Assembly: GCA_964537935.1 (NCBI GenBank)
Contig: CAZICT010000001.1
Location: 6,870-70,869, forward strand
Reading direction: 5' to 3'
Length of the DNA stretch: 64,000 nt
From: an uncultured Candidatus Saccharibacteria bacterium
Lineage (GTDB): Bacteria > Patescibacteriota > Saccharimonadia > Saccharimonadales > CAZICT01
Shown here one piece after another: positions 3,730-22,418 of this stretch. The translations under genes and the position numbers were made by a program. The notes under the pieces are model-generated. The model was not told where the DNA came from and made no database searches. It was given only the letters and a program-made list of their open reading frames with translations. The first letter of the stretch is position 1. Each line of letters begins with the position of its first letter.

Positions 3730-4863
3730 ATGGCTATGAGGATGAAATCGGTTGTAGTGACACTGCTCTTAAGTGTTGCCGGGGTCTTTGCGTTTTTTGG
3801 GATTGCCGGAGCGCAAGAATTTAGAGCAGGAAATCGAACGACAGTTGCTCAAGGAGAAGTGATTGATTCAACGTTATGGGCTACCGGTTCGACTGTTGAT
3901 ATCGCAGGCGAGGTAAACGGTGATGTCTTTTGTGCGGGTCAAAACGTTACCATTACCGGTACGGTTAGGGGTGATGTTATTTGTGCAGGCCAAAACGTTC
4001 GGATCGCGGGGGCTGTCGAAGGTGACGTTCGTGTCGCCGGACAAGTGGTCATGATAGAAGCCAAAATTGATGACAACCTTACAGCTGCCTCGCAAAACTT
4101 TACATTGAGCAGTGAAGGGAGCGTTGAAGGAGACGCAAGCATTGCATCTAATGACGCCATGATAAATGGTGCAATAGCGCGCGATCTTGCAGTTACCAGT
4201 ACCAGTACAACCATCACCAGCACCATCGGACGGAATGTAAAGGCCGGCATTGAGAATTTGTCCTTCACTTCAAATGCTCGGGTTGGCGGTAGCGTTGAAT
4301 ATGCCAGCGATAATGAAGCGTCAGTCGCGGAAGGGGCACAAATCGGGTCTATTACCCGTACTCAATCCAAAGGAGATAGAGACGGATTTCTGACGATAAG
4401 TTTCGGCATGGTTGTTTATATAATCATCGCCCTTTTATTGGTTAGTATTGTTCTGGTGCTTTTTGCGCCAAATATGTTCGAGTCTGCTGCCAAACGAACA
4501 GCTAACCGACCCTGGAAGACGCTATTTGTTGGTTTGGCTGCCGGAATAATCGTACCTGCGATGTTTATTGCATTGCTCTTTTCGGTCATTGGCATCCCGT
4601 TGGCTATCATCGGTTTGCATGCGTGGCTACTGGTTCTCTTCCTGGGCGGTCCGTTCGTCGGATATTTGATTGGACGACTGCTTTTGCGCGATCAGAATAA
4701 CGCAATTGTCATTATGCTACTGGGAAGCCTGCTGCTACTCGTTACGATGTTCATCCCGATATTCGGATTCTTTGTATTGCTAGTTACTATGTGGATGGGT
4801 GCCGGCATGATTCTGTACGAGATAAAAGATAAACTGCCAAAACCACGATACCGCCTGAAATAG
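3730..4863 (+). CDS. membrane protein with N-terminal bactofilin-like (polymer-forming cytoskeletal) repeats and C-terminal polytopic domain
   Basis: 377 aa with a signal/TM start. Repeated G(D/E)V.(C)AGQNV.I.G..(R/E)GDV units sit in the first ~200 aa. Several hydrophobic helices occupy the last ~150 aa. Confidence 0.6.
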   Translation: MAMRMKSVVVTLLLSVAGVFAFFGIAGAQEFRAGNRTTVAQGEVIDSTLWATGSTVDIAGEVNGDVFCAGQNVTITGTVRGDVICAGQNVRIAGAVEGDVRVAGQVVMIEAKIDDNLTAASQNFTLSSEGSVEGDASIASNDAMINGAIARDLAVTSTSTTITSTIGRNVKAGIENLSFTSNARVGGSVEYASDNEASVAEGAQIGSITRTQSKGDRDGFLTISFGMVVYIIIALLLVSIVLVLFAPNMFESAAKRTANRPWKTLFVGLAAGIIVPAMFIALLFSVIGIPLAIIGLHAWLLVLFLGGPFVGYLIGRLLLRDQNNAIVIMLLGSLLLLVTMFIPIFGFFVLLVTMWMGAGMILYEIKDKLPKPRYRLK

Positions 4864-5425: not shown

Positions 5426-6247
5426 TTACATCAGCTTAAGAGATTTAAGTATTTCTATAGCTTGGCTATAGGCGTTAGTTGACTGAAAATAATCAAGGCT
5501 GACTTTGTTGGTTGCGAAATCTTCATTTAGTTCCGGTGATGAGTAGCCGCCGGTAATAAGGTAGGTTTGCGGCTCCTTCCCGTAGTCAGGTCCCAGTGTG
5601 TCATTTGTGTCGAGAACGAAATTTCCAACAATCAGGAAATAGGCAAAGTGATCGGTTGTATCAAGACCGAAAAACGACAGATTGGTTTCTTCGCGTTGAC
5701 CGGTTGCCGGGTCGGTGTAGCTCAGATTTTCTGACGGCTTAACTGCAATACCACGTCCGATATAGGTGCTATCGACAGCTCGGGCACCCTGCCGGATGTA
5801 TATCCGGAAATTGCCGGCTACTTCGCCCTTATCAAGTGTTTGATATGTAAACTCGGGCGACTCAATACGTAAGCCATCGTCGGACGGTGTTACAGTCCAA
5901 TCTTCCGGGTGAGACAACTCAAGTCTGGGTGTAGTACTTTTGAACGTTTCACTCGCCAATGTAATCGGTATGTCGTCAGTTTCATTATTGTCTGTAAGGG
6001 CGGGAGAATCATCCTGTGGCGTGGTGACTTGAGCGGGTTGAGCGCTTTGCTCTGCGTCATTATTTAAAAAAATGCGCCAAACCGCGTAAGATGTCATGCC
6101 AACAATAATGGCGCCACTTATAAAAATTGCGATTACTTTAAACCGCGAACGTACCGGCTTGGATTGTTTTGGCGGCGAAGGCGGGGTGGCTTCGCTGTCA
6201 GGCAGTTCGAGCTTACCGCCAAGGAACTTTTCGCTATCACTCACCAT
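5426..6247 (-). CDS. hypothetical membrane-anchored protein
   Basis: 273 aa with one N-terminal TM helix (VIAIFISGAIIVGMTSYAVW) followed by a probable extracellular domain. Confidence 0.55.
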   Translation of the reverse strand: MVSDSEKFLGGKLELPDSEATPPSPPKQSKPVRSRFKVIAIFISGAIIVGMTSYAVWRIFLNNDAEQSAQPAQVTTPQDDSPALTDNNETDDIPITLASETFKSTTPRLELSHPEDWTVTPSDDGLRIESPEFTYQTLDKGEVAGNFRIYIRQGARAVDSTYIGRGIAVKPSENLSYTDPATGQREETNLSFFGLDTTDHFAYFLIVGNFVLDTNDTLGPDYGKEPQTYLITGGYSSPELNEDFATNKVSLDYFQSTNAYSQAIEILKSLKLM

Positions 6248-6585: not shown

Positions 6586-7347
6586 TTAGCGAAGAAAATA
6601 AACCACGGTTACCGTGTAGTTGATTTCATTTTCTCCAGGTTGAAGTTGTAGGCTGGATGAGCTGGAGCTCGAATCAAGTTCCATGGCCCGGGCATCAAAC
6701 GGAATTACACCATCAAAGCCAGCTCCATCAGTTACTGACTTGACTTCACCTATCTTAAAGCCAAGATTTTCAGCAGATTGATCCGCTTTAGATCGAGCGT
6801 TTTTAGTGGCTTCGTCACGAGCCTGGGTTTCTAATTCGTTTCGCTTGGCTTCGCTGAATTGATAGCGCGGAGTAACCGAACCCTCAGGTGTTGTTGTAAC
6901 AAGATAGTCCTGTACTTTTTGGGCTAAATCCTTGTCATTCACGGTAACTGTCAAACGTAAGTAATAATCAGTTCTGCCGTCTTCCCGTGACATATAGTAA
7001 TAATCATGGCCATCGGCATTGGTTTTTATTTGGCTGCCTGAGACGCCCAATTCTTTAAGCCCCTCAACTACCTGATTGCTTTTAGCGGTAACATCAGCAA
7101 GCGCAGCATCTTGATCGGTATTTGTGAAGCGGTAGGCCGGGTTAAAGACATACTCATCGGGTTCAGCACTAATTGTCGCCTGGCCGGTAACTTCTATAGT
7201 GCGATCTGTGGTCGCCGTAGTTGACCACGGTTTCCAAATGACCAGCATGGCAATTACTGCAAGCAAAAGCACTACTGTTATCACCCTTAAATCCAATGAA
7301 AGCTTTAACTTTTTATTATTTCGTGAACTTGGTTCTTCGGACACCAT
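6586..7347 (-). CDS. SIMPL domain-containing protein (DUF541-like periplasmic/secreted protein)
   Basis: 253 aa with an N-terminal TM/signal. It has the V.G.A.IS.EPD start and the LQPGE..I...V.VVYFL end typical of the SIMPL family. Confidence 0.7.
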   Translation of the reverse strand: MVSEEPSSRNNKKLKLSLDLRVITVVLLLAVIAMLVIWKPWSTTATTDRTIEVTGQATISAEPDEYVFNPAYRFTNTDQDAALADVTAKSNQVVEGLKELGVSGSQIKTNADGHDYYYMSREDGRTDYYLRLTVTVNDKDLAQKVQDYLVTTTPEGSVTPRYQFSEAKRNELETQARDEATKNARSKADQSAENLGFKIGEVKSVTDGAGFDGVIPFDARAMELDSSSSSSSLQLQPGENEINYTVTVVYFLR

Positions 7348-17321: not shown

Positions 17322-19847
17322 ATGAAAATAAGCGTTAATTGGATAAAGCAGTTTACGGATATTGACTTGTCTATTGAAGATTTGGTGGCCAAAATCGGCG
17401 CCCAGATAGGCGCGGTTGAAGAAATTATTGACATTGGCGCAAGATACCAAGGTATTGTTGTAGCGAAAGTTGTGACTTGCGAAAAACATCCAAACGCCGA
17501 TAAGCTGAGCGTTTGTTTGATAGATGACGGCGGTGTTGTAGCCGGTGTCAATAGAAACGATAGTGGTTTGGTTGAGGTTGTTTGCGGTGCACCGAATGTC
17601 CGACAAGACCTGATGGTAGCCTGGATACCTCCGGGTGCTACCGTTCCGAGCACATATGACAAAGAGCCATTTGTACTAGAGGCCAGAGAGCTTCGCGGCG
17701 TAGTTAGTAACGGTATGATAGCCAGTGGAAAAGAACTGGCGATAAATGAAGATCACGGCGGCATAGTTGAGCTTGATATCGAAGCGGCTCCAGGTACTCC
17801 GTTCGCTGAAGTATACGAGCTTAACGATTACGTTATTGATATTGAAAATAAGATGTTTACGCATCGCCCGGACTGCTTTGGAATTATTGGTGTTGCACGA
17901 GAGATAGCCGGTGTCCAAAATAAACAGTTTACGAGCCCGGAATGGTACCTAAGGTCATTAGATAGAATAAAGCCCGGAAAAACAAAGTTACCTTTAAATG
18001 TAGTTAATGACGCTCCGGAACTAGTTCCCAGATTTATGGCTGTAGCTATGGCGGAAGTTAATGTACATCCAAGCCCGCTAATTATCCAAACCTATCTGGC
18101 GCGCGTAGGGATTAGACCGATAAACAACATAGTAGATACCACTAATTATCTGATGATATTAACCGGCCAACCCTTGCATGCTTATGACTACGACAAGGTT
18201 GCGGCTAAAAGCGGAGAGGTGCCGACGTTGGTGGCTAGACTGGCAAAAAATAATGAGAAGCTGACCTTAATAAACGGAAAAACATATGAACTTGAATCTC
18301 CGAGCATAGTCATAGCAACTGACACAGGCGCGATTGGAGTTGGTGGTGTGATGGGTGGAGCAACTACTGAGGTCGATGAAAATACCAAGAACATTATTTT
18401 AGAGTGCGCCAATTTTGATATGTACTCAATTCGTAAAACGGCTATGAAGTATGGACTGTTTACTGATGCGGTCACCAGATTCAATAAAGGTCAAAGCCCG
18501 CTTCAGAATGAAAGGGTGATCGAAGAAGCCGTTGCTACTTTGCAATACGTAAGCGGCGCTGATACTGCCAGTGAAGTATTTGATGAAGGAACTGAACCTA
18601 AACAGCCCAAAGAAGTAGAGGTTGACTATCGGCTGATCAATGACCGGCTCGGGCTGGAACTTGAAGAAAAAGACATAATCAAGCGGCTTGAAAATGTCGA
18701 AATGACAGTCAAGACTGAAGGCGAACTGCTGATTATCCAGCCGCCATATTGGCGAACCGATCTTGAAATATCCGAAGATATCATTGAGGAGGTCGGACGA
18801 TTGGTAGGATATGACAAATTGCCGCTTGTCTTGCCAAGGCGGAGCATTAAACCCACGGAGCGCAACCGAACGCTTGATTTTGCCACAGACGTGCGGGACA
18901 AATTGTCTTCCATGGGTGCCAACGAGGCATTAACTTATAGTTTCGTGCACGGAAAATTGCTGGATACAGTCGGTCAAGACAAAGACAAGGCGTTTAAACT
19001 GAGTAATGCCCTGAGTCCGGATCTTCAATTTTATCGGCTCAGTCTGACACCGAGTCTACTTGAAAAAGTGCACGCCAATCTAAGGTCCGATTACGTACGT
19101 GACACGGAAGATAATGAATTTGCTTTATTTGAAATAGGTAAGACGCACATAAAAGAGGTCCACAGCCAGAGCGAACCTGATGTTCCGTATGAATTCCAAC
19201 GAATTGCTTTGGTAATTGCGGCGGACGACAAGACCGCTAAGCGCAAGTATGGCGGGGCTGCATATTATCAAGCACAAAGTTATCTTCGCGAACTTTTGTC
19301 GGCTTTTAATATAGATTTCTCCCTTGAGCCGCTTGATCCTTCCAGGTACGACATCAATACCGTTGTTGAAATAGCGCCTTTTGATCCTGAAAGGTCAGCA
19401 ACCATCACGGTTAATGAGTCTGTTATCGGTCAGGTTGGAGAATTTCTGCCTAAGGTGAAGAAGCAGCTTAAGCTGCCGCATTGGACAGCAGGCTTTGAGC
19501 TTGACATGCGGGCGCTTGAAGAACACTCACGGCCTCTTTCATATCAGGCAATCCCACGTTACCCCAAGGTGGTCCAGGATATTACATTGAGAGTGTCTAG
19601 CAATGTATTGCACGCTCAACTGCTCAAAGTGCTTAATCAAACCCTCGATGTCCTGGCTGGAGATAAGCTATATCTAAATTTAATGCCGAAAGATGTATTT
19701 CAAAAGGAAGGCGAGCCTCATAGTAATATCACGCTTCGCTTGTGGGCTGCTCATTATGAGAAGACAATGACGGCCACAGAAGTTAATGAGCTCTTGGGCG
19801 CACTAGCTGAACGCGCCAATCAAGAATTTGGCGCTGAAAGGGTTTAG
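17322..19847 (+). CDS. pheT: phenylalanine--tRNA ligase beta subunit
   Basis: 841 aa. It starts MKISVNWIKQF and has the tRNA-binding, B3/4, B5 and FDX-ACB domain order. It directly follows pheS. Confidence 0.95.
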   Translation: MKISVNWIKQFTDIDLSIEDLVAKIGAQIGAVEEIIDIGARYQGIVVAKVVTCEKHPNADKLSVCLIDDGGVVAGVNRNDSGLVEVVCGAPNVRQDLMVAWIPPGATVPSTYDKEPFVLEARELRGVVSNGMIASGKELAINEDHGGIVELDIEAAPGTPFAEVYELNDYVIDIENKMFTHRPDCFGIIGVAREIAGVQNKQFTSPEWYLRSLDRIKPGKTKLPLNVVNDAPELVPRFMAVAMAEVNVHPSPLIIQTYLARVGIRPINNIVDTTNYLMILTGQPLHAYDYDKVAAKSGEVPTLVARLAKNNEKLTLINGKTYELESPSIVIATDTGAIGVGGVMGGATTEVDENTKNIILECANFDMYSIRKTAMKYGLFTDAVTRFNKGQSPLQNERVIEEAVATLQYVSGADTASEVFDEGTEPKQPKEVEVDYRLINDRLGLELEEKDIIKRLENVEMTVKTEGELLIIQPPYWRTDLEISEDIIEEVGRLVGYDKLPLVLPRRSIKPTERNRTLDFATDVRDKLSSMGANEALTYSFVHGKLLDTVGQDKDKAFKLSNALSPDLQFYRLSLTPSLLEKVHANLRSDYVRDTEDNEFALFEIGKTHIKEVHSQSEPDVPYEFQRIALVIAADDKTAKRKYGGAAYYQAQSYLRELLSAFNIDFSLEPLDPSRYDINTVVEIAPFDPERSATITVNESVIGQVGEFLPKVKKQLKLPHWTAGFELDMRALEEHSRPLSYQAIPRYPKVVQDITLRVSSNVLHAQLLKVLNQTLDVLAGDKLYLNLMPKDVFQKEGEPHSNITLRLWAAHYEKTMTATEVNELLGALAERANQEFGAERV

Positions 19848-19962
19848 CATTAACCTTCAACTACCATACGTTTATGTAGTTGCATAAACTGATTTGTTAT
19901 TGTACAATATTAAAGCTTTGTGGTTGAGTTGAGGTAAACTCCTCACCTAAAAAGCGTACTTT

Positions 19963-19977
19963 GACAGATATGATGAT
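19963..19977. repeat. left arm of a perfect 15-bp inverted repeat (GACAGATATGATGAT)
   Basis: It is the exact reverse complement of 20536-20550. The match extends to 17/18 with one mismatch. Confidence 0.9.
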
Positions 19978-20059
19978 ATGAGCTCGTCCTGAGATTTGGT
20001 AGTTTTGTGTATTTACCGAGAAAACCGATAATTATGCATAACTATCAAATCATCCACCA

Positions 20060-20132
20060 GGATCTGTAGCTCATGGGTAGAGCGTCTGGCTATCAACCAG
20101 AAGAAGCGAGTTCGAGTCTCGTCGGATCCGCC
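20060..20132 (+). tRNA. tRNA, Asp-like identity features but anticodon reads AUC (positions 20092-20094)
   Basis: Hand-folded cloverleaf. The acceptor stem is GGATCTG/CGGATCC. The D arm is GCTC-ATGGGTA-GAGC. The anticodon arm is TCTGG-CTATCAA-CCAGA. The T arm is GCGAG-TTCGAGT-CTCGT. The discriminator is G, followed by CC. G-U pairs fit only the + strand. Confidence 0.8.
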
Positions 20133-20530
20133 TAGGCGTGGGAACCGAAAACACCCGAAGCGGAATCCCGCCCCGTTTCACGGTGTGTGCATTTGCCGCC
20201 ATTTGGTCGGCTGGCACCGTCCCGGAATTTGGGACTGTTCCCACGCCACCCCGGTGGAGGAGGGAGCTCTGTACTTCTCAGAGTTGCCACTGTGTGTCGG
20301 TGTCCCCCCGTCACTGACCCCTCCTCCACTCAATTCTTCCGGAAAAGGGAGTGTCCTTGCTTTCAGTAGCAAGACCATGCATGAAATGCATGCGGCACGT
20401 CAACTTTGGCGATCGTTCAGGGCTCTCCTGTCTTGCCGGCTCCCTGGAAGTTCATTGATGGGAAAAGTGCGGGGCGCGTTTGTCAGCATTGATGGTGTCC
20501 TAGCACCTAGCAACAAACGCGTCCCGCCAA
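20133..20530 (+). ncRNA. unassigned GC-rich, highly structured RNA candidate (~400 nt)
   Basis: GC is about 58% by hand count against AT-richer flanks, and the only ORFs are overlapping junk ORFs on both strands. Perfect helices pair 20135-45/20237-47 (11 bp) and 20254-64/20319-29 (11 bp); a third, 20469-83/20513-27 (15 bp), has one G-U. Several local hairpins are also present. The G-U pairs favour the + strand. Confidence 0.45.
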
Positions 20531-20535
20531 CCCAC

Positions 20536-20550
20536 ATCATCATATCTGTC
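20536..20550. repeat. right arm of the perfect 15-bp inverted repeat (ATCATCATATCTGTC)
   Basis: Reverse complement of 19963-19977. Confidence 0.9.
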
Positions 20551-20633
20551 TATCTCCCATAGCTCATGAGTGTTCATGATTTGCGGGAGATAAATTTCGC
20601 CAAACATTTACTAACCGTGTTAGTCTTTTATTT

Positions 20634-22418
20634 ATGAAACAACTCTGGAGAATTATTCGCTTCACTAGCGAATTGAAAAAGTATTATATCTGGATTTCAT
20701 TATTCACGATTTTACTTGCCAGCATGAGTCAGGTACAGCCGTTGCTTACAAAGGCTGCTGTTGATGAATTTACCAAGTTAATTGACGGCGGACAGACACG
20801 CTTATGGTTTGTCGGCTTAATGGCATTTCTTATATTTCTGACTGATTTGGGACAGACACTCCTGAGCAATATCGGTGGTTATTTCGGCGATATGATGAGT
20901 ATAAAAATCAAACGGCTTATGAGCCAGCGTTACTACGAGCGCCTGCTGGAATTACCTCAGCGTTATTTTGATACGGAACTCTCCGGCAAAATTATTAATC
21001 GGATGAGCCGCGGTATCAATCAGATAGGTGATTTTATGCAAATGCTGAGCAATAACTTTCTGCAGTTCATTTTCAGCACCATATTTTCACTCGTTATTGT
21101 GGCGATATATTCATGGCAAGTCGCCTTAATGTTGGCTCTGCTGTATCCGATTTTCATATATATGACGATGCGCACCAGTAATAAATGGCAGAAATATCAA
21201 CACACTATCAACACCGAGCTTGATGTCGCCAGCGGACGGTTCGCCGAAGGTATTTCCCAAATTAAAGTCGTCAAGAGCTTCGTTCAGGAAGCCAGAGAAC
21301 TCAAGTTCTTTAACCGTCATTATGATAAAGCCGTAAAGACCACCAGCCCTCAAAGCAAGTACTGGCATAAGCGTGATATTGCTCGTAGATTAGTATTGAA
21401 CGGGATTTTCCTACTGGTTTTTACCTATATATTTATTGAGACTGGTCGCGGCGTATATACCATTGGTGAGATGGTGCTGCTAATTCAGTATGCGACACTG
21501 ATACGTATACCGATTTTTAGCATCAGCTTCTTAGTTGACCGTATGCAACGCACTATTGCTGACACTAAAGATTATTTCGAGGTTATAGATCAACAGCCGC
21601 ATACTGCAGACATTTTAAACGCCAAATCGCTAAAAGTAAGCAGAGCCAAAATAGAACTACGTAATTTATCGTTTAGCTATGATATCCGTCAGCCGGTCCT
21701 TAAGGATATTAATCTAACAATTGAACCGGACTCAAAAGTTGCGTTGGTGGGCGAAAGCGGAGAAGGCAAAACAACGCTTACTAATTTGCTGATGCGTCTG
21801 TATGAACCGGAAAAAGGTGAAATACTTATTGATGATCAAAATATTGCCGATGTGTCACTCAAATCGCTACGAAGCGCTATTGGAACGGTATTTCAGGAGC
21901 CCGCTTTGTTCAGCGGCACTGTTCGTGAAAATATTTCATATGCCCGTCCCGGTGCGGACGACAAGCAAATTATCGCTGCCGCCAAAGCAGCCAATGCTCA
22001 TGAGTTTATCAGCCAATTCGACAAAGGTTATGATACTGAAATAGGCGAGCGTGGGCTCAAGCTGTCAGGCGGCCAAAAACAGCGCATCGCAATCGCCAGA
22101 GCATTACTCAAAGACGCTCCGATATTAATTTTAGACGAGGCGACAAGTAGCCTCGATAGTCGTAGCGAACACTTAGTCCAGGAAGCGCTGGAACGATTAA
22201 TGAAGGGACGGACTACGATAATCATCGCTCATCGTTTGAGTACTATTCAGCATGTTGATATGATCGTAACGATTAAGAACGGACAAATTGATGAAGCGGG
22301 TTCACCGCGCAAACTGGCTAAAAGCGGCGGAATCTATGCTCAGCTGCTTGATCTTCAACGCAGTAAACAATCAGAACGAGCAAAGAAAAAATTACAGCGT
22401 TTCGAAATTGCGACCTGA
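20634..22418 (+). CDS. ABC transporter, fused permease/ATP-binding protein (MsbA/exporter-type fold)
   Basis: 594 aa with a 6-TM N-terminal half, Walker A GESGEGKTT, signature LSGGQKQR and Walker B ILILDEATS. Confidence 0.9.
   Translation: MKQLWRIIRFTSELKKYYIWISLFTILLASMSQVQPLLTKAAVDEFTKLIDGGQTRLWFVGLMAFLIFLTDLGQTLLSNIGGYFGDMMSIKIKRLMSQRYYERLLELPQRYFDTELSGKIINRMSRGINQIGDFMQMLSNNFLQFIFSTIFSLVIVAIYSWQVALMLALLYPIFIYMTMRTSNKWQKYQHTINTELDVASGRFAEGISQIKVVKSFVQEARELKFFNRHYDKAVKTTSPQSKYWHKRDIARRLVLNGIFLLVFTYIFIETGRGVYTIGEMVLLIQYATLIRIPIFSISFLVDRMQRTIADTKDYFEVIDQQPHTADILNAKSLKVSRAKIELRNLSFSYDIRQPVLKDINLTIEPDSKVALVGESGEGKTTLTNLLMRLYEPEKGEILIDDQNIADVSLKSLRSAIGTVFQEPALFSGTVRENISYARPGADDKQIIAAAKAANAHEFISQFDKGYDTEIGERGLKLSGGQKQRIAIARALLKDAPILILDEATSSLDSRSEHLVQEALERLMKGRTTIIIAHRLSTIQHVDMIVTIKNGQIDEAGSPRKLAKSGGIYAQLLDLQRSKQSERAKKKLQRFEIAT

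Follow-up and report, generated by a model that had tools for sequence, protein, structure and literature searches.

A candidate family of clamped non-coding RNA units with hypervariable GC-rich interiors downstream of pheT in Saccharibacteria

Results

A GC-rich element forms the interior of a larger unit

A GC-rich, hairpin-dense sequence follows a tRNA in the 64-kb stretch of DNA analyzed here (the window). In the reading that we consider probable, this sequence is the variable interior of a ~690-nt non-coding RNA unit (~19915–20600, + strand) that belongs to a new family absent from Rfam. Members of this family share a junction motif at the 5′ side, a long-range closing helix (P1) and an irregular 3′ hairpin (H3), and their interiors evolve too fast to be aligned between genera. 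From 5′ to 3′, the unit in the window would consist of a putative promoter, a leader, the P1 5′ strand, an AU-rich hairpin (P2), the tRNA, ~400 nt of GC-rich hairpins, the P1 3′ strand and H3. The individual features are as follows.

19880..19908, + strand: putative sigma-70-type promoter read from the sequence, TTGCAT, 17-nt spacer, TACAAT (−10 box at 19903–19908)
19915..19962, + strand: leader, with GGTTGAG at 19922–19928, a hairpin TGAGG/CCTCA at 19930–19945 and the junction motif GCGTACTTT running into the 5′ arm
19963..19980, + strand: P1 5′ arm GACAGATATGATGATATG, pairing with 20533–20550
19993..20051, + strand: P2, a long AU-rich hairpin in the MFE fold of the whole unit, stem GATTTGGTAGTT / AACTATCAAATC with one G–U
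20060..20132, + strand: tRNA, a complete cloverleaf with an Asp-type body, anticodon AUC and no encoded CCA
20133..20532, + strand: GC-rich multi-hairpin core with a short C-rich tail, supported by GC content, MFE z score and confirmed helices
20135–20247, + strand: core domain 1, an 11-bp stem closing three hairpins
20254–20329, + strand: core domain 2, an 11-bp stem
20356–20373, 20376–20392 and 20469–20527 (15-bp), + strand: core 3′ hairpins of the MFE fold
20533..20550, + strand: P1 3′ arm CACATCATCATATCTGTC, pairing with 19963–19980
20551..20592, + strand: H3, an irregular 42-nt hairpin, TATCTCCC-A-TAG-C-TCATGA-GTGT-TCATGA-T-TTG-C-GGGAGATA

The jump in composition described by an initial annotation of this sequence is clear, with a GC content of 0.55–0.61 in 200-nt windows across 20100–20499 versus about 0.39–0.45 on both flanks. 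The tRNA directly 5′ of the element is confirmed by ARAGORN and by the Rfam tRNA model (64.8 bits). Both strands contain overlapping open reading frames (ORFs) of 57–125 aa, of which the 125-aa ORF has no Pfam match. A repeat search recovered the proposed helices 20135–20145/20237–20247 and 20254–20264/20319–20329 (both 11 bp, 100%) and 20469–20483/20513–20527 (15 nt, 93%), and all three are used by the MFE fold, which also contains the small hairpins at 20356–20373 and 20376–20392. Pairing of 20416–20422 with 20442–20448, proposed at the same time, is possible, but the MFE fold does not contain it. Position pairs 20474/20522, 20266/20284 and 20417/20447 all read as G–T in the DNA, as had been claimed, and therefore pair on the + strand only. 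The + strand of the element folds at −186.9 kcal/mol, compared with a shuffled mean of −142.5 ± 6.2 (z = −7.2, with 0 of 100 shuffles as good), and the − strand at −176.5 (z = −5.5). The description of the element as non-coding and as RNA-like on the + strand is borne out. What did not survive is its description as a self-contained, conserved RNA: the 400 nt are the hypervariable interior of the ~19915–20600 unit, and the conserved parts (the junction motif, P1 and H3) lie outside the segment first annotated, which missed both the 18-nt inverted repeat around the tRNA and the element and the hairpin at 20551–20592.

The arms of this inverted repeat, which constitute P1, are 94% complementary with 15 consecutive perfect pairs, stand 552 nt apart and enclose P2, the tRNA and the GC-rich domain. 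A long near-perfect hairpin resembling P2 likewise follows the 5′ arm in related units (L009, L021, L032a, L083, L135, L039 and L089, where L numbers denote loci of relatives), often with a G–U in AGGCA/UGUCU. The tRNA is called as tRNA-Asp(atc) by ARAGORN and scores well above the RF00005 gathering score of 29. It carries the Asp-type features G73, G2–C71, G10, U35, C36 and the T-loop UUCGAGU; we take the body to be Asp-type from our understanding of the identity elements recognized by AspRS. To our knowledge, AUC is not a standard bacterial anticodon. ARAGORN finds this single tRNA gene in the 64-kb window, and no tRNA adjoins pheT in the pheT loci of the first 80 relatives. The sole tRNA-like call in those loci lies ~2 kb downstream of pheT in L039, inside a unit of its own with the same part order as that in the window (P1, P2, tRNA-like part, GC-rich domain, P1′ and H3).

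On the 5′ side, the boxes at 19880–19908 suggest a promoter of the unit that is weak by consensus; with only three of six positions matching in the −35 box, it escapes a consensus scan. Related units have −10-like boxes at the equivalent place, 35–60 nt before the 5′ arm, and L135 carries promoter-like boxes TTGACA-17-TATTAT. We rejected the TTGACA at the start of P1 as a candidate −35 box, as no unit was found by reading to have a correctly spaced −10 box for it. In about a dozen of the 35 aligned units, GGTTGAG precedes the arm by 20–35 nt; as a genome-wide motif it is uninformative because the other nine copies in the window lie inside genes. The leader/arm junction motif, YWTTGACAGRTGTA, is the best-conserved sequence on this side, and 30 nt of the leader are 90% identical to L016 (PheT proteins 57–58% identical). 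At the 3′ end, H3 of the window scores 44.4 bits (E = 1e-7) against a covariance model, R1, and is the only significant match to it in the 64 kb. No T-run follows, so H3 may not terminate transcription there; T-runs follow H3 in L009 and L083.

The unit sits downstream of pheT and on the same strand within the gene row pheS-pheT-ABC-NUDIX-FKBP. Further neighbors are housekeeping genes only (ABC exporter, NUDIX, FKBP, glutaredoxin and TrxR), and no recombinase, integrase, transposase or reverse transcriptase is present among the neighbors from pheS to TrxR (~3.8 kb upstream and ~4.4 kb downstream). The ABC gene lies downstream of the GC-rich element on the same strand; in most relatives, it abuts or overlaps pheT, and other variable genes are found at the pheT|ABC junction in relatives. 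Strain-level variation amounts to four differences in 786 nt, too few to bear on structure.

Related units recur at Saccharibacteria pheT loci

The same architecture is found in ~43 units distributed over ~35 of 169 Saccharibacteria pheT loci. To locate H3 we used covariance model R1, built from 24 relatives, in place of a loose regular expression that was too unspecific. In 1.46 Mb, this model identifies ~43 copies, every one on the pheT strand and downstream of pheT, with none upstream; there are no copies away from the pheT neighborhood in the 1.46 Mb or elsewhere in the 64-kb window. P1-equivalent arms with 8–18 perfect pairs are present in ~36 of the 43 units, and their 3′ arm ends 0–3 nt before H3 in nearly all units. 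Arm sequences differ freely from unit to unit. Perfect inverted repeats with arms ≥12 nt long and separated by >250 nt occur in 12 of 32 long intergenic regions downstream of pheT versus 1 of 64 same-length controls.

Units range from 320 to 790 nt and occur singly or form tandem arrays of two to three, the latter in L091, L019, L032, L102, L126 and L139, in the same orientation and each ending in H3. Four units carry a tRNA or tRNA-like T-arms as cargo, ~7 carry small Cys-rich ORFs, and most carry hairpin-rich RNA. Canonical T-arm hairpins are seen on the + strand of four units and on the − strand of none, and Cys-rich small proteins follow a strong Shine–Dalgarno sequence in L016, L017, L032b, L035/L104/L135 and L097. 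In some loci, equivalent units follow the ABC gene, and in others they precede NUDIX, FKBP or opposite-strand genes.

Identity clustering of PheT places the units in particular clades, with ~14 of 25 loci in one clade, for example, which indicates largely vertical descent. Looking up closer relatives through the ABC protein retrieved the source species and eight relatives (ABC protein 72–75% identical), and the unit is absent from all eight. The unit is thus dispensable, and one has to suppose that it is frequently lost or gained. We found nothing relevant in the literature on a Saccharibacteria or CPR RNA of the clamped P1–H3 type. Among the viral-contig matches listed (at least 120, found with the H3 pattern) there is no family member; they look like chance matches, with no inner hairpin and a best preceding arm of mostly 5–7 bp.

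P1 and H3 covary, and most units fold better on the + strand

In a registered alignment of P1, 98% of cells pair and 11 of the 12 pairs change on both sides; none of 500 shuffles reaches the observed pairing, and slid controls pair at 22–45%. P1 is also almost exclusively Watson–Crick, with one G–U in 154 cells. This purity is partly a matter of ascertainment, because the arms were found as perfect inverted repeats, and inverted repeats acting at the DNA level would fit it equally well. Of the 15 pairs in the H3 consensus, 13 show changes on both sides. U–G and G–U pairs, which would be mismatches on the opposite strand, are abundant in H3.

In 20 of 24 units, the + strand gives a more stable fold than the − strand (mean −16.5 kcal/mol, Wilcoxon p = 1.4e-4). 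Unit interiors stripped of their P1 arms have z scores of −3.9 to −9.8 (mean −7.2), and 39 of 43 units show a GC excess in the interior (+5.6 points). Compensatory change is also evident in those interiors that can be aligned: long helices are kept between L067 and L125 with 11 double-sided changes, and 16 of 56 pairs covary in the interiors of the CTGACG subfamily.

The interiors have no detectable homologs and match no known RNA

The initial annotation called for homolog searches with BLASTN and nhmmer, and these returned nothing for the core sequence itself beyond its own species. Across 80 GTDB loci, blastn (word size 7) and nhmmer recovered same-species contigs only, and no sequence homolog of the 400-nt core was found in the 169 related loci. 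All-versus-all blastn of unit interiors, metagenome units included, gave no cross-genus match, and a shared k-mer search found no common core motif. Among intergenic regions and cores compared in the same way, only L067/L125 and the trio L035/L104/L135 are alignable; MAFFT of the window with L039, L017 and L016 aligned the flanks only, and distant blastn of phage records matched only the tRNA. The 400-nt interior of the window thus has no alignable homolog, and its helices accordingly carry no covariation support. Neither very long perfect hairpins nor hypervariability is usual in an RNA that adopts a defined tertiary fold.

None of the 4227 models of Rfam 15 matches the element, either at gathering thresholds across the whole 64-kb window or at E ≤ 10 with permissive filters across 19850–20700, in agreement with the earlier failure to assign it. 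In particular, no covariance-model match was obtained for RNase P, tmRNA, 5S, SRP, 6S, OLE or HEARO, nor does ARAGORN find a tmRNA. Related loci are likewise free of family matches, in 14 at gathering thresholds and in 5 at E ≤ 5. The cobalamin riboswitch that had been offered as a weaker alternative is rejected, with no RF00174 match at E ≤ 10 and genomic contexts that do not suit it.

Discussion

Alternative explanations

The patchy occurrence of the units, even among close relatives, could reflect a DNA-level cassette or mobile element whose P1 arms and H3 are recombination sites at a chromosomal hotspot, either integron-like, with H3 akin to attC, or MITE-like. We regard this as unlikely, notwithstanding tandem arrays of two to three that each close with the same conserved hairpin, the variety of cargo (tRNA, tRNA-like parts, two kinds of Cys-rich ORF and hairpin-rich sequence), the placement of units at different junctions of one gene row, the other variable genes at the pheT|ABC junction of relatives and the nearly pure Watson–Crick pairing of P1. 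No integrase, transposase or reverse transcriptase accompanies the unit among the pheS–TrxR neighbors, the H3 consensus (yCTCCCAGAG...yTGYGGGAG) lacks the R″ and R′ boxes of attC and the freely varying P1 arms keep no recombinase-binding sequence. Nor are there copies outside the pheT neighborhood in the 1.46 Mb or the 64-kb window, changes of orientation, visible target-site duplications or family members among the viral-contig matches listed (at least 120). Clade-wise clustering fits descent, and the + strand G–U asymmetry of H3 and the interiors is what an RNA would show. Another alternative is a functionless transcribed spacer, in which the GC-rich hairpins would be the precursor trailer of a tRNA or small-gene unit, degraded after processing. 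Hypervariable interiors without a shared motif, flanking stems that resemble rRNA/tRNA precursor architecture and recognizable cargo in some units (a tRNA, or small ORFs with a Shine–Dalgarno sequence) suit this explanation, which we nevertheless find improbable: most units have no recognizable cargo and are still 320–790 nt long, GC-enriched and folded at z scores of −4 to −10; unconstrained sequence is not expected to remain GC-rich in genomes of 40–50% GC; and core helices are kept with compensatory changes wherever they can be aligned.

A coding function is very unlikely, whether for the 125-aa ORF (20185–20562), which ends inside H3 after crossing the 3′ arm of P1 and lacks a Pfam match, or for a 33-aa Cys-containing peptide (TTG 20357 to TGA 20458, after AAGGGAG). 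The peptide, MLSVARPCMKCMRHVNFGDRSGLSCLAGSLEVH, does contain CxxC and FG motifs, arranged in approximately the order found in the small Cys-rich proteins that related units encode after strong Shine–Dalgarno sequences; profiles of both Cys-rich peptide types give E values of 7–22 against the window's frames, which is not significant, and there is no Pfam match. The similarity of L067 and L125 in all frames reflects conservation of DNA or RNA and not of protein. That the element is a cis-regulatory leader of the ABC exporter, either a riboswitch (for example, of a divergent cobalamin type) or an attenuator, is extremely improbable: units also lie after the ABC gene, before NUDIX/FKBP genes and before opposite-strand genes, the ABC gene abuts or overlaps pheT in most relatives, unconserved interiors are incompatible with a ligand pocket and no riboswitch family matches at E ≤ 10. 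These points outweigh its position upstream of the ABC gene on the same strand, the terminator-like H3 with T-runs in L009 and L083 and the speculative competition of a CUCC-type stretch in the leader for the 3′ half of H3. We give scarcely any credence to a highly diverged known RNA (RNase P RNA, tmRNA, 6S, SRP, GOLLD, ROOL, OLE, HEARO or Y RNA). The unit's size, closing helix and tRNA association recall several such RNAs, as do the T-arm modules of some members, but none of the 4227 Rfam models matches the element at gathering thresholds or at E ≤ 10 with permissive filters, nor was a match found in 14 related loci (gathering thresholds) or 5 (E ≤ 5), and an essential RNA would neither vanish from the loci of the closest relatives nor be unalignable between genera.

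A model for the clamped units and its significance

Under the preferred reading of a new family of non-coding RNA units, the unit would be transcribed as a single precursor, driven either by a promoter of its own or by pheST read-through. P1 would then clamp the 5′ and 3′ ends in the manner of the processing stems of rRNA and tRNA precursors, and would probably serve as a double-strand-specific (RNase III-type) processing or stabilizing site. RNase P and a 3′ tRNA-processing nuclease would release the tRNA, and the GC-rich domain may persist as a stable, species-specific RNA tied through P1 to the 5′ piece.

We advance a broader reading tentatively, as possible but not probable, in which the family consists of RNA cassettes, each with a closing helix that is free to vary and an H3 tag, arrayed one to three deep in the pheT row. 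The cargo would be interchangeable and take one of three forms: a tRNA (or a mimic of one) bearing an odd anticodon, a mini zinc-finger protein, or a block of extreme hairpins specific to the species. A dedicated protein acting in processing, packaging or exchange would use H3 and P1 as handles, and the hairpin domains would be active, for example as large self-assembling or decoy RNAs by analogy with GOLLD and ROOL, possibly in epibiont–host or phage–host conflict. If true, exchangeable cassettes of this kind would represent a new organizational principle for small genes.

CPR genomes are tiny and contain little non-coding DNA, so selection is implied when many lineages retain hundreds of bases of GC-enriched, extremely folded RNA beside an essential gene. 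The clamped P1–H3 units are a candidate new class of large bacterial RNA outside Rfam, and the junction motif, P1 and H3 together provide a compact, searchable signature with which to map them across Saccharibacteria. The window also offers a natural case of an AUC-anticodon tRNA embedded in a larger clamped RNA, which parallels the unexplained association of GOLLD and ROOL with tRNAs.

Comparison with known systems

GOLLD (RF01998) and ROOL (RF03087) are also large (500–800 nt), ornate, tRNA-associated non-coding RNAs without known function. GOLLD, whose 3′ part is conserved and whose 5′ part is less so, sometimes carries tRNAs in a variable linker (PMC12286853). The unit has in common with it a tRNA (or T-arm module) inside a large RNA, a variable interior and conserved flanks, a likeness that is one of resemblance only. 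Unlike GOLLD and ROOL, it matches neither RF01998 nor RF03087, its conserved parts are a closing helix and a 42-nt hairpin with no large tertiary core and its interiors are built of long near-perfect hairpins; unlike GOLLD, it occupies a housekeeping row with one tRNA in 64 kb, not a phage or prophage tRNA island. The analogy with these RNAs drawn in the initial annotation therefore holds for the tRNA inside an end-clamped unit and breaks down at covariance-model membership.

YrlA (Y RNA-like) RNAs likewise combine a terminal stem, in which the 5′ and 3′ ends pair, with an internal tRNA-like module, but they are 100–200 nt long, have a conserved Ro-binding helix and adjoin rsr. The unit, in contrast, has no Rfam match and no rsr among the neighbors examined; the copy in the window holds a full tRNA, and most family members have no tRNA-like part. 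Correia/NEMIS and ERIC elements are also hairpin-forming, flanked by inverted repeats and located between operon genes, and RNase III can cut them when they are transcribed. They differ in being 100–160 bp long and multicopy, with a sequence conserved among the copies of a genome, whereas the units are confined to a single locus, three to five times longer and unique in sequence. With one copy in the window, arms that differ and no flanking duplication, the unit does not resemble a MITE or IS.

Integron attC cassettes, including integrase-less attC clusters, are similarly tandem and uniformly oriented, with variable and often tiny or non-coding cargo. As in such cassettes, each unit closes with an imperfect hairpin that is conserved and contains unpaired bases, and presence is patchy. 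attC sites carry the boxes R″ (RYYYAAC) and R′ (GTTRRRY), which the H3 consensus, nnTnTCCCAGAGTTCATnA...TnGTGGnTTGTGGGAGAnG, does not contain. The units further differ from integrons in having their own long-range closing helix, apparently their own promoter and arrays of at most three, with no integrase nearby and a G–U pattern that points to an RNA of the coding strand.

In rRNA and tRNA operon precursors, the RNase III sites flanking 16S and 23S, with spacer tRNAs, also place a long-range near-perfect helix around a tRNA-containing stretch of stable RNA. The units differ from them in having no rRNA inside, in being 320–790 nt long, dispensable and sometimes tandem and in that RNase III cleavage of the units is suggested by analogy. 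The U-rich 5′-junction motif, YACUUUGACA, loosely recalls what we take to be the boxA consensus. P1 has the form of an RNase III-type stem, a long-range near-perfect duplex enclosing stable-RNA sequence, and, as in rRNA precursors, the spacer-like sequence that it encloses is hypervariable.

The GC-rich element is part of a larger helix-enclosed unit

The initial annotation had singled out 20133–20530, directly 3′ of a tRNA, as a GC-rich, helix-dense RNA-like element, and this observation is confirmed as a whole. GC content is 0.55–0.61 across 20100–20499, as against 0.39–0.45 in the flanks on either side. The three long complementarities described were recovered exactly by an inverted-repeat search and are all used in the minimum-energy fold, and each of the three G–U pairs proposed reads as G–T in the DNA. 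The flagged stretch folds with a minimum energy of −186.9 kcal/mol (z = −7.2) on the + strand and −176.5 kcal/mol (z = −5.5) on the − strand. The overlapping ORFs are present as noted; the longest has no Pfam match and crosses the structural elements P1 and H3. The GC-rich element is itself a portion of a larger unit closed by P1, a long-range helix whose arms enclose both the tRNA and the GC-rich stretch.

Features of the unit and its neighbors
17322–19847 (+): pheT, upstream neighbor
19880–19908 (+): putative promoter TTGCAT-17-TACAAT; plausible, non-consensus, missed by the promoter scan
19963–19980 / 20533–20550 (+): P1 inverted repeat, 18 nt with 15 consecutive perfect pairs (inverted-repeat search)
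19993–20051 (+): P2, a long AU-rich hairpin after the P1 5′ arm, followed by the tRNA and then the GC-rich domain
20060–20132 (+): tRNA (ARAGORN, Rfam)
20551–20592 (+): H3, an irregular 42-nt hairpin immediately 3′ of the P1 3′ arm
20634–22418 (+): ABC-exporter gene, downstream neighbor

A short leader lies upstream of the P1 5′ arm, near the putative promoter. The leader/P1 boundary is spanned by a perfect TTGACA hexamer (19961–19966), which has an equivalent in at least eight relatives. Sequence conservation in the family is highest here, and neither the hexamer nor its equivalents have a −10 box downstream at promoter spacing. The hexamer's surroundings, YACUUUGACA, may bear a loose likeness to rRNA-leader boxA sequences. 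A 12-nt direct repeat (TAGCTCATGGGT / TAGCTCATGAGT, at 20067–20078 and 20560–20571) occurs once in the D-arm of the tRNA and once in the 5′ half of H3, probably by coincidence because the H3 copy belongs to a family-wide yCATGA inner stem.

A cmscan search of the window with all 4,227 Rfam 15 models matched, besides this tRNA, only a c-di-GMP-II riboswitch elsewhere, and a second pass over 19850–20700 with permissive filters (E ≤ 10) returned the tRNA and noise. The element thus has no match in Rfam even at E ≤ 10. Neither the cobalamin-type riboswitch that had been offered as an alternative nor the suggested kinship to GOLLD and ROOL found a model match there, and RNase P, tmRNA, 6S, SRP, 5S, OLE and HEARO identities are likewise excluded. 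ARAGORN detected no tmRNA in the window. The c-di-GMP-II aptamer (RF01786; 6436–6519, −) is full-length and lies upstream of a − strand ORF at 5426–6247, with a score of 62.7 bits (gathering score, 53.5).

Units of the same architecture recur downstream of pheT

The window comes from a Saccharibacterium whose best PheT matches among GTDB species representatives are Saccharimonadales at no more than 59% identity. We compared the pheT loci of relatives, 80 from GTDB genomes and 80 from metagenomes. In most of them pheT directly abuts the next member of a conserved gene row (ABC, NUDIX or FKBP), and in none of the 80 GTDB loci does a tRNA adjoin pheT. A subset of loci carries a GC-enriched non-coding insert of 500–1,200 nt downstream of pheT. 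Despite the absence of blastn or nhmmer similarity to the window's interior (the sequence between the P1 arms) or to one another, these inserts have the window's architecture: the 5′ side bears a junction motif, YWTTGACAGRTGTA; a long-range inverted repeat starts 70–150 nt past the pheT stop; the 5′ arm is often followed by a long hairpin; a pyrimidine-rich tail comes just before the 3′ arm; and directly 3′ of that arm stands a hairpin with the consensus yTCTCCCAGAG-(inner hairpin)-yTGYGGGAGA.

Loci carry either a single unit or two to three in tandem (arrays in L091, L019, L032, L102, L126 and L139), at pheT–ABC, ABC–NUDIX, pheT–NUDIX or pheT–FKBP junctions. The presence of units clusters by PheT clade, and the eight closest relatives examined have none. 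In five of these unit-less relatives (L168, L169, L173, L174 and L175), the pheT–ABC junction carries other inserted genes, encoding Bac_transf, a 578-aa domainless protein, a Tim44-like protein, a 459-aa protein and, on the opposite strand, a T6SS Hcp; this marks the junction as a general variation hotspot. In L040, an H3 hairpin (6635–6680, 30.6 bits) sits in a 152-nt pheT–ABC spacer with neither P1 nor an interior and may be the leftover of a deleted unit. In one clade, GGTAGCAGTGCTCCCC..TTGTGGTTGAG is common to the leaders (L019 6573–6634 and 7241–7302, L089 5577–5638, L091 6729–6790); it resembles H3 minus its inner hairpin (CUCCCC + UUGUGG) and suggests that these leaders derive from H3 by tandem duplication or can rival it for pairing.

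P1 and H3 covary, and interiors are strongly folded

Of 32 long pheT-downstream spacers, 12 contain a perfect inverted repeat (≥12 nt) whose arms lie more than 250 nt apart, versus 1 of 64 length-matched control windows. When 13 P1 arm pairs were aligned by anchored register, 98% of cells paired, with both-sided changes in 11 of 12 pairs (38 cells); none of 500 shuffles equalled this, and slid registers paired only 22–45%. For H3, RNAalifold predicted 15 pairs from 24 sequences, of which 13 have double changes that preserve pairing, and three positions are mostly U–G or G–U and would mismatch on the opposite strand. An H3 covariance model returned about 43 significant copies from the window and 168 loci (1.46 Mb), all on the pheT strand and downstream of pheT, with none upstream and exactly one in the window (44.4 bits). 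Almost every copy follows its own P1 3′ arm by 0–3 nt, and P1 has 8–18 perfect pairs in about 36 of the 43 units. The 120 H3-like pattern matches listed from viral contigs, a negative control, are preceded mostly by arms of 5–7 bp and look like chance.

Folding favored the + strand over the − strand in 20 of 24 units, with an average energy gap of −16.5 kcal/mol (p = 1.4 × 10⁻⁴). Interiors stripped of their P1 arms have z scores from −3.9 to −9.8 (mean −7.2) and exceed the GC of their surroundings by 5.6 points (39 of 43 cases). Long helices are kept with compensatory changes wherever interiors can be aligned; the window's own 400-nt interior, with no similar sequence among the loci searched by blastn and nhmmer, has no such comparative support.

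Some units carry tRNA-type or Cys-rich cargo

A canonical T-arm hairpin occurs in four units on the + strand and in none on the − strand. The window's unit holds a full tRNA, L039 a tRNA-like cloverleaf at the default ARAGORN threshold with its parts in the window's order, and L019 and L089 degenerate cloverleaves seen only at relaxed thresholds; the Rfam tRNA model matched none of the latter three modules at E ≤ 5. The embedded tRNA is a well-formed cloverleaf (64.8 bits) with G73, G2–C71, G10, U35, C36 and the T-loop UUCGAGU, and CCA is not encoded. Judged by these identity elements, its body is of the Asp type. Its anticodon is AUC, not GUC (loop CUAUCAA, 20092–20098), and an Asp tRNA with A34 is not known as a standard bacterial decoder. 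The related modules have unrelated or odd anticodons: CCC (L039), GUG (L019) and AUU (L089).

Small Cys-rich ORFs occur in about seven units, several behind Shine–Dalgarno sequences, which are strong in L016, L017 and L032b. The first type combines four CxxCxGxG repeats with weak, below-cut-off similarity to Pfam DnaJ_CXXCXGXG (zinc finger) and Anti-TRAP; the other, common to L016 and L017, reads C..CC..C.G.AGR.SFGGLS.VTC..C...H...C. Neither profile matched any frame of the window.

Cys-rich ORF regions
L135: 5612–6049
L097: about 4346–4750
L032: 7359–7681
L016: 7113–7265
L017: about 4425–4560

Most units have no recognizable cargo. Many of these still keep GC-rich hairpins, which weakens a reading of the interior as spacer only.

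The units as a candidate RNA gene family

Taken together, the freely covarying closing helices, the conserved G–U-rich hairpin, the consistent strand asymmetry, the maintained GC excess and extreme foldedness, and the single locus and orientation among housekeeping genes argue for an RNA gene family over a regulatory leader, coding region or transposon. Most economically, the transcript would be a precursor with P1-clamped ends, as in rRNA and tRNA precursors, from which the tRNA would be excised, leaving the GC-rich domain as a stable product. The main rival, a DNA-level cassette system, would suit the patchy presence, tandem arrays, variable cargo and purely Watson–Crick P1 arms, and we consider it unlikely. 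The P1 arms were found through a perfect-repeat search, such that their near absence of G–U is partly ascertainment and does not separate RNA from DNA. No recombinase lies among the pheS to TrxR neighbors in the window.

GOLLD and ROOL are, like the unit, large and tRNA-associated, and the variable part of GOLLD sometimes holds tRNAs (PMC12286853). Other near analogies are rRNA-operon processing stems, integron cassettes with attC hairpins and YrlA. Literature searches on Saccharibacteria and CPR bacteria yielded no account of a comparable RNA. Because, in addition, each of these analogies fails at least one defining test, we rate the family, a candidate RNA known here from sequence and represented in the window by an interior without a homolog among the loci searched, as new in kind.
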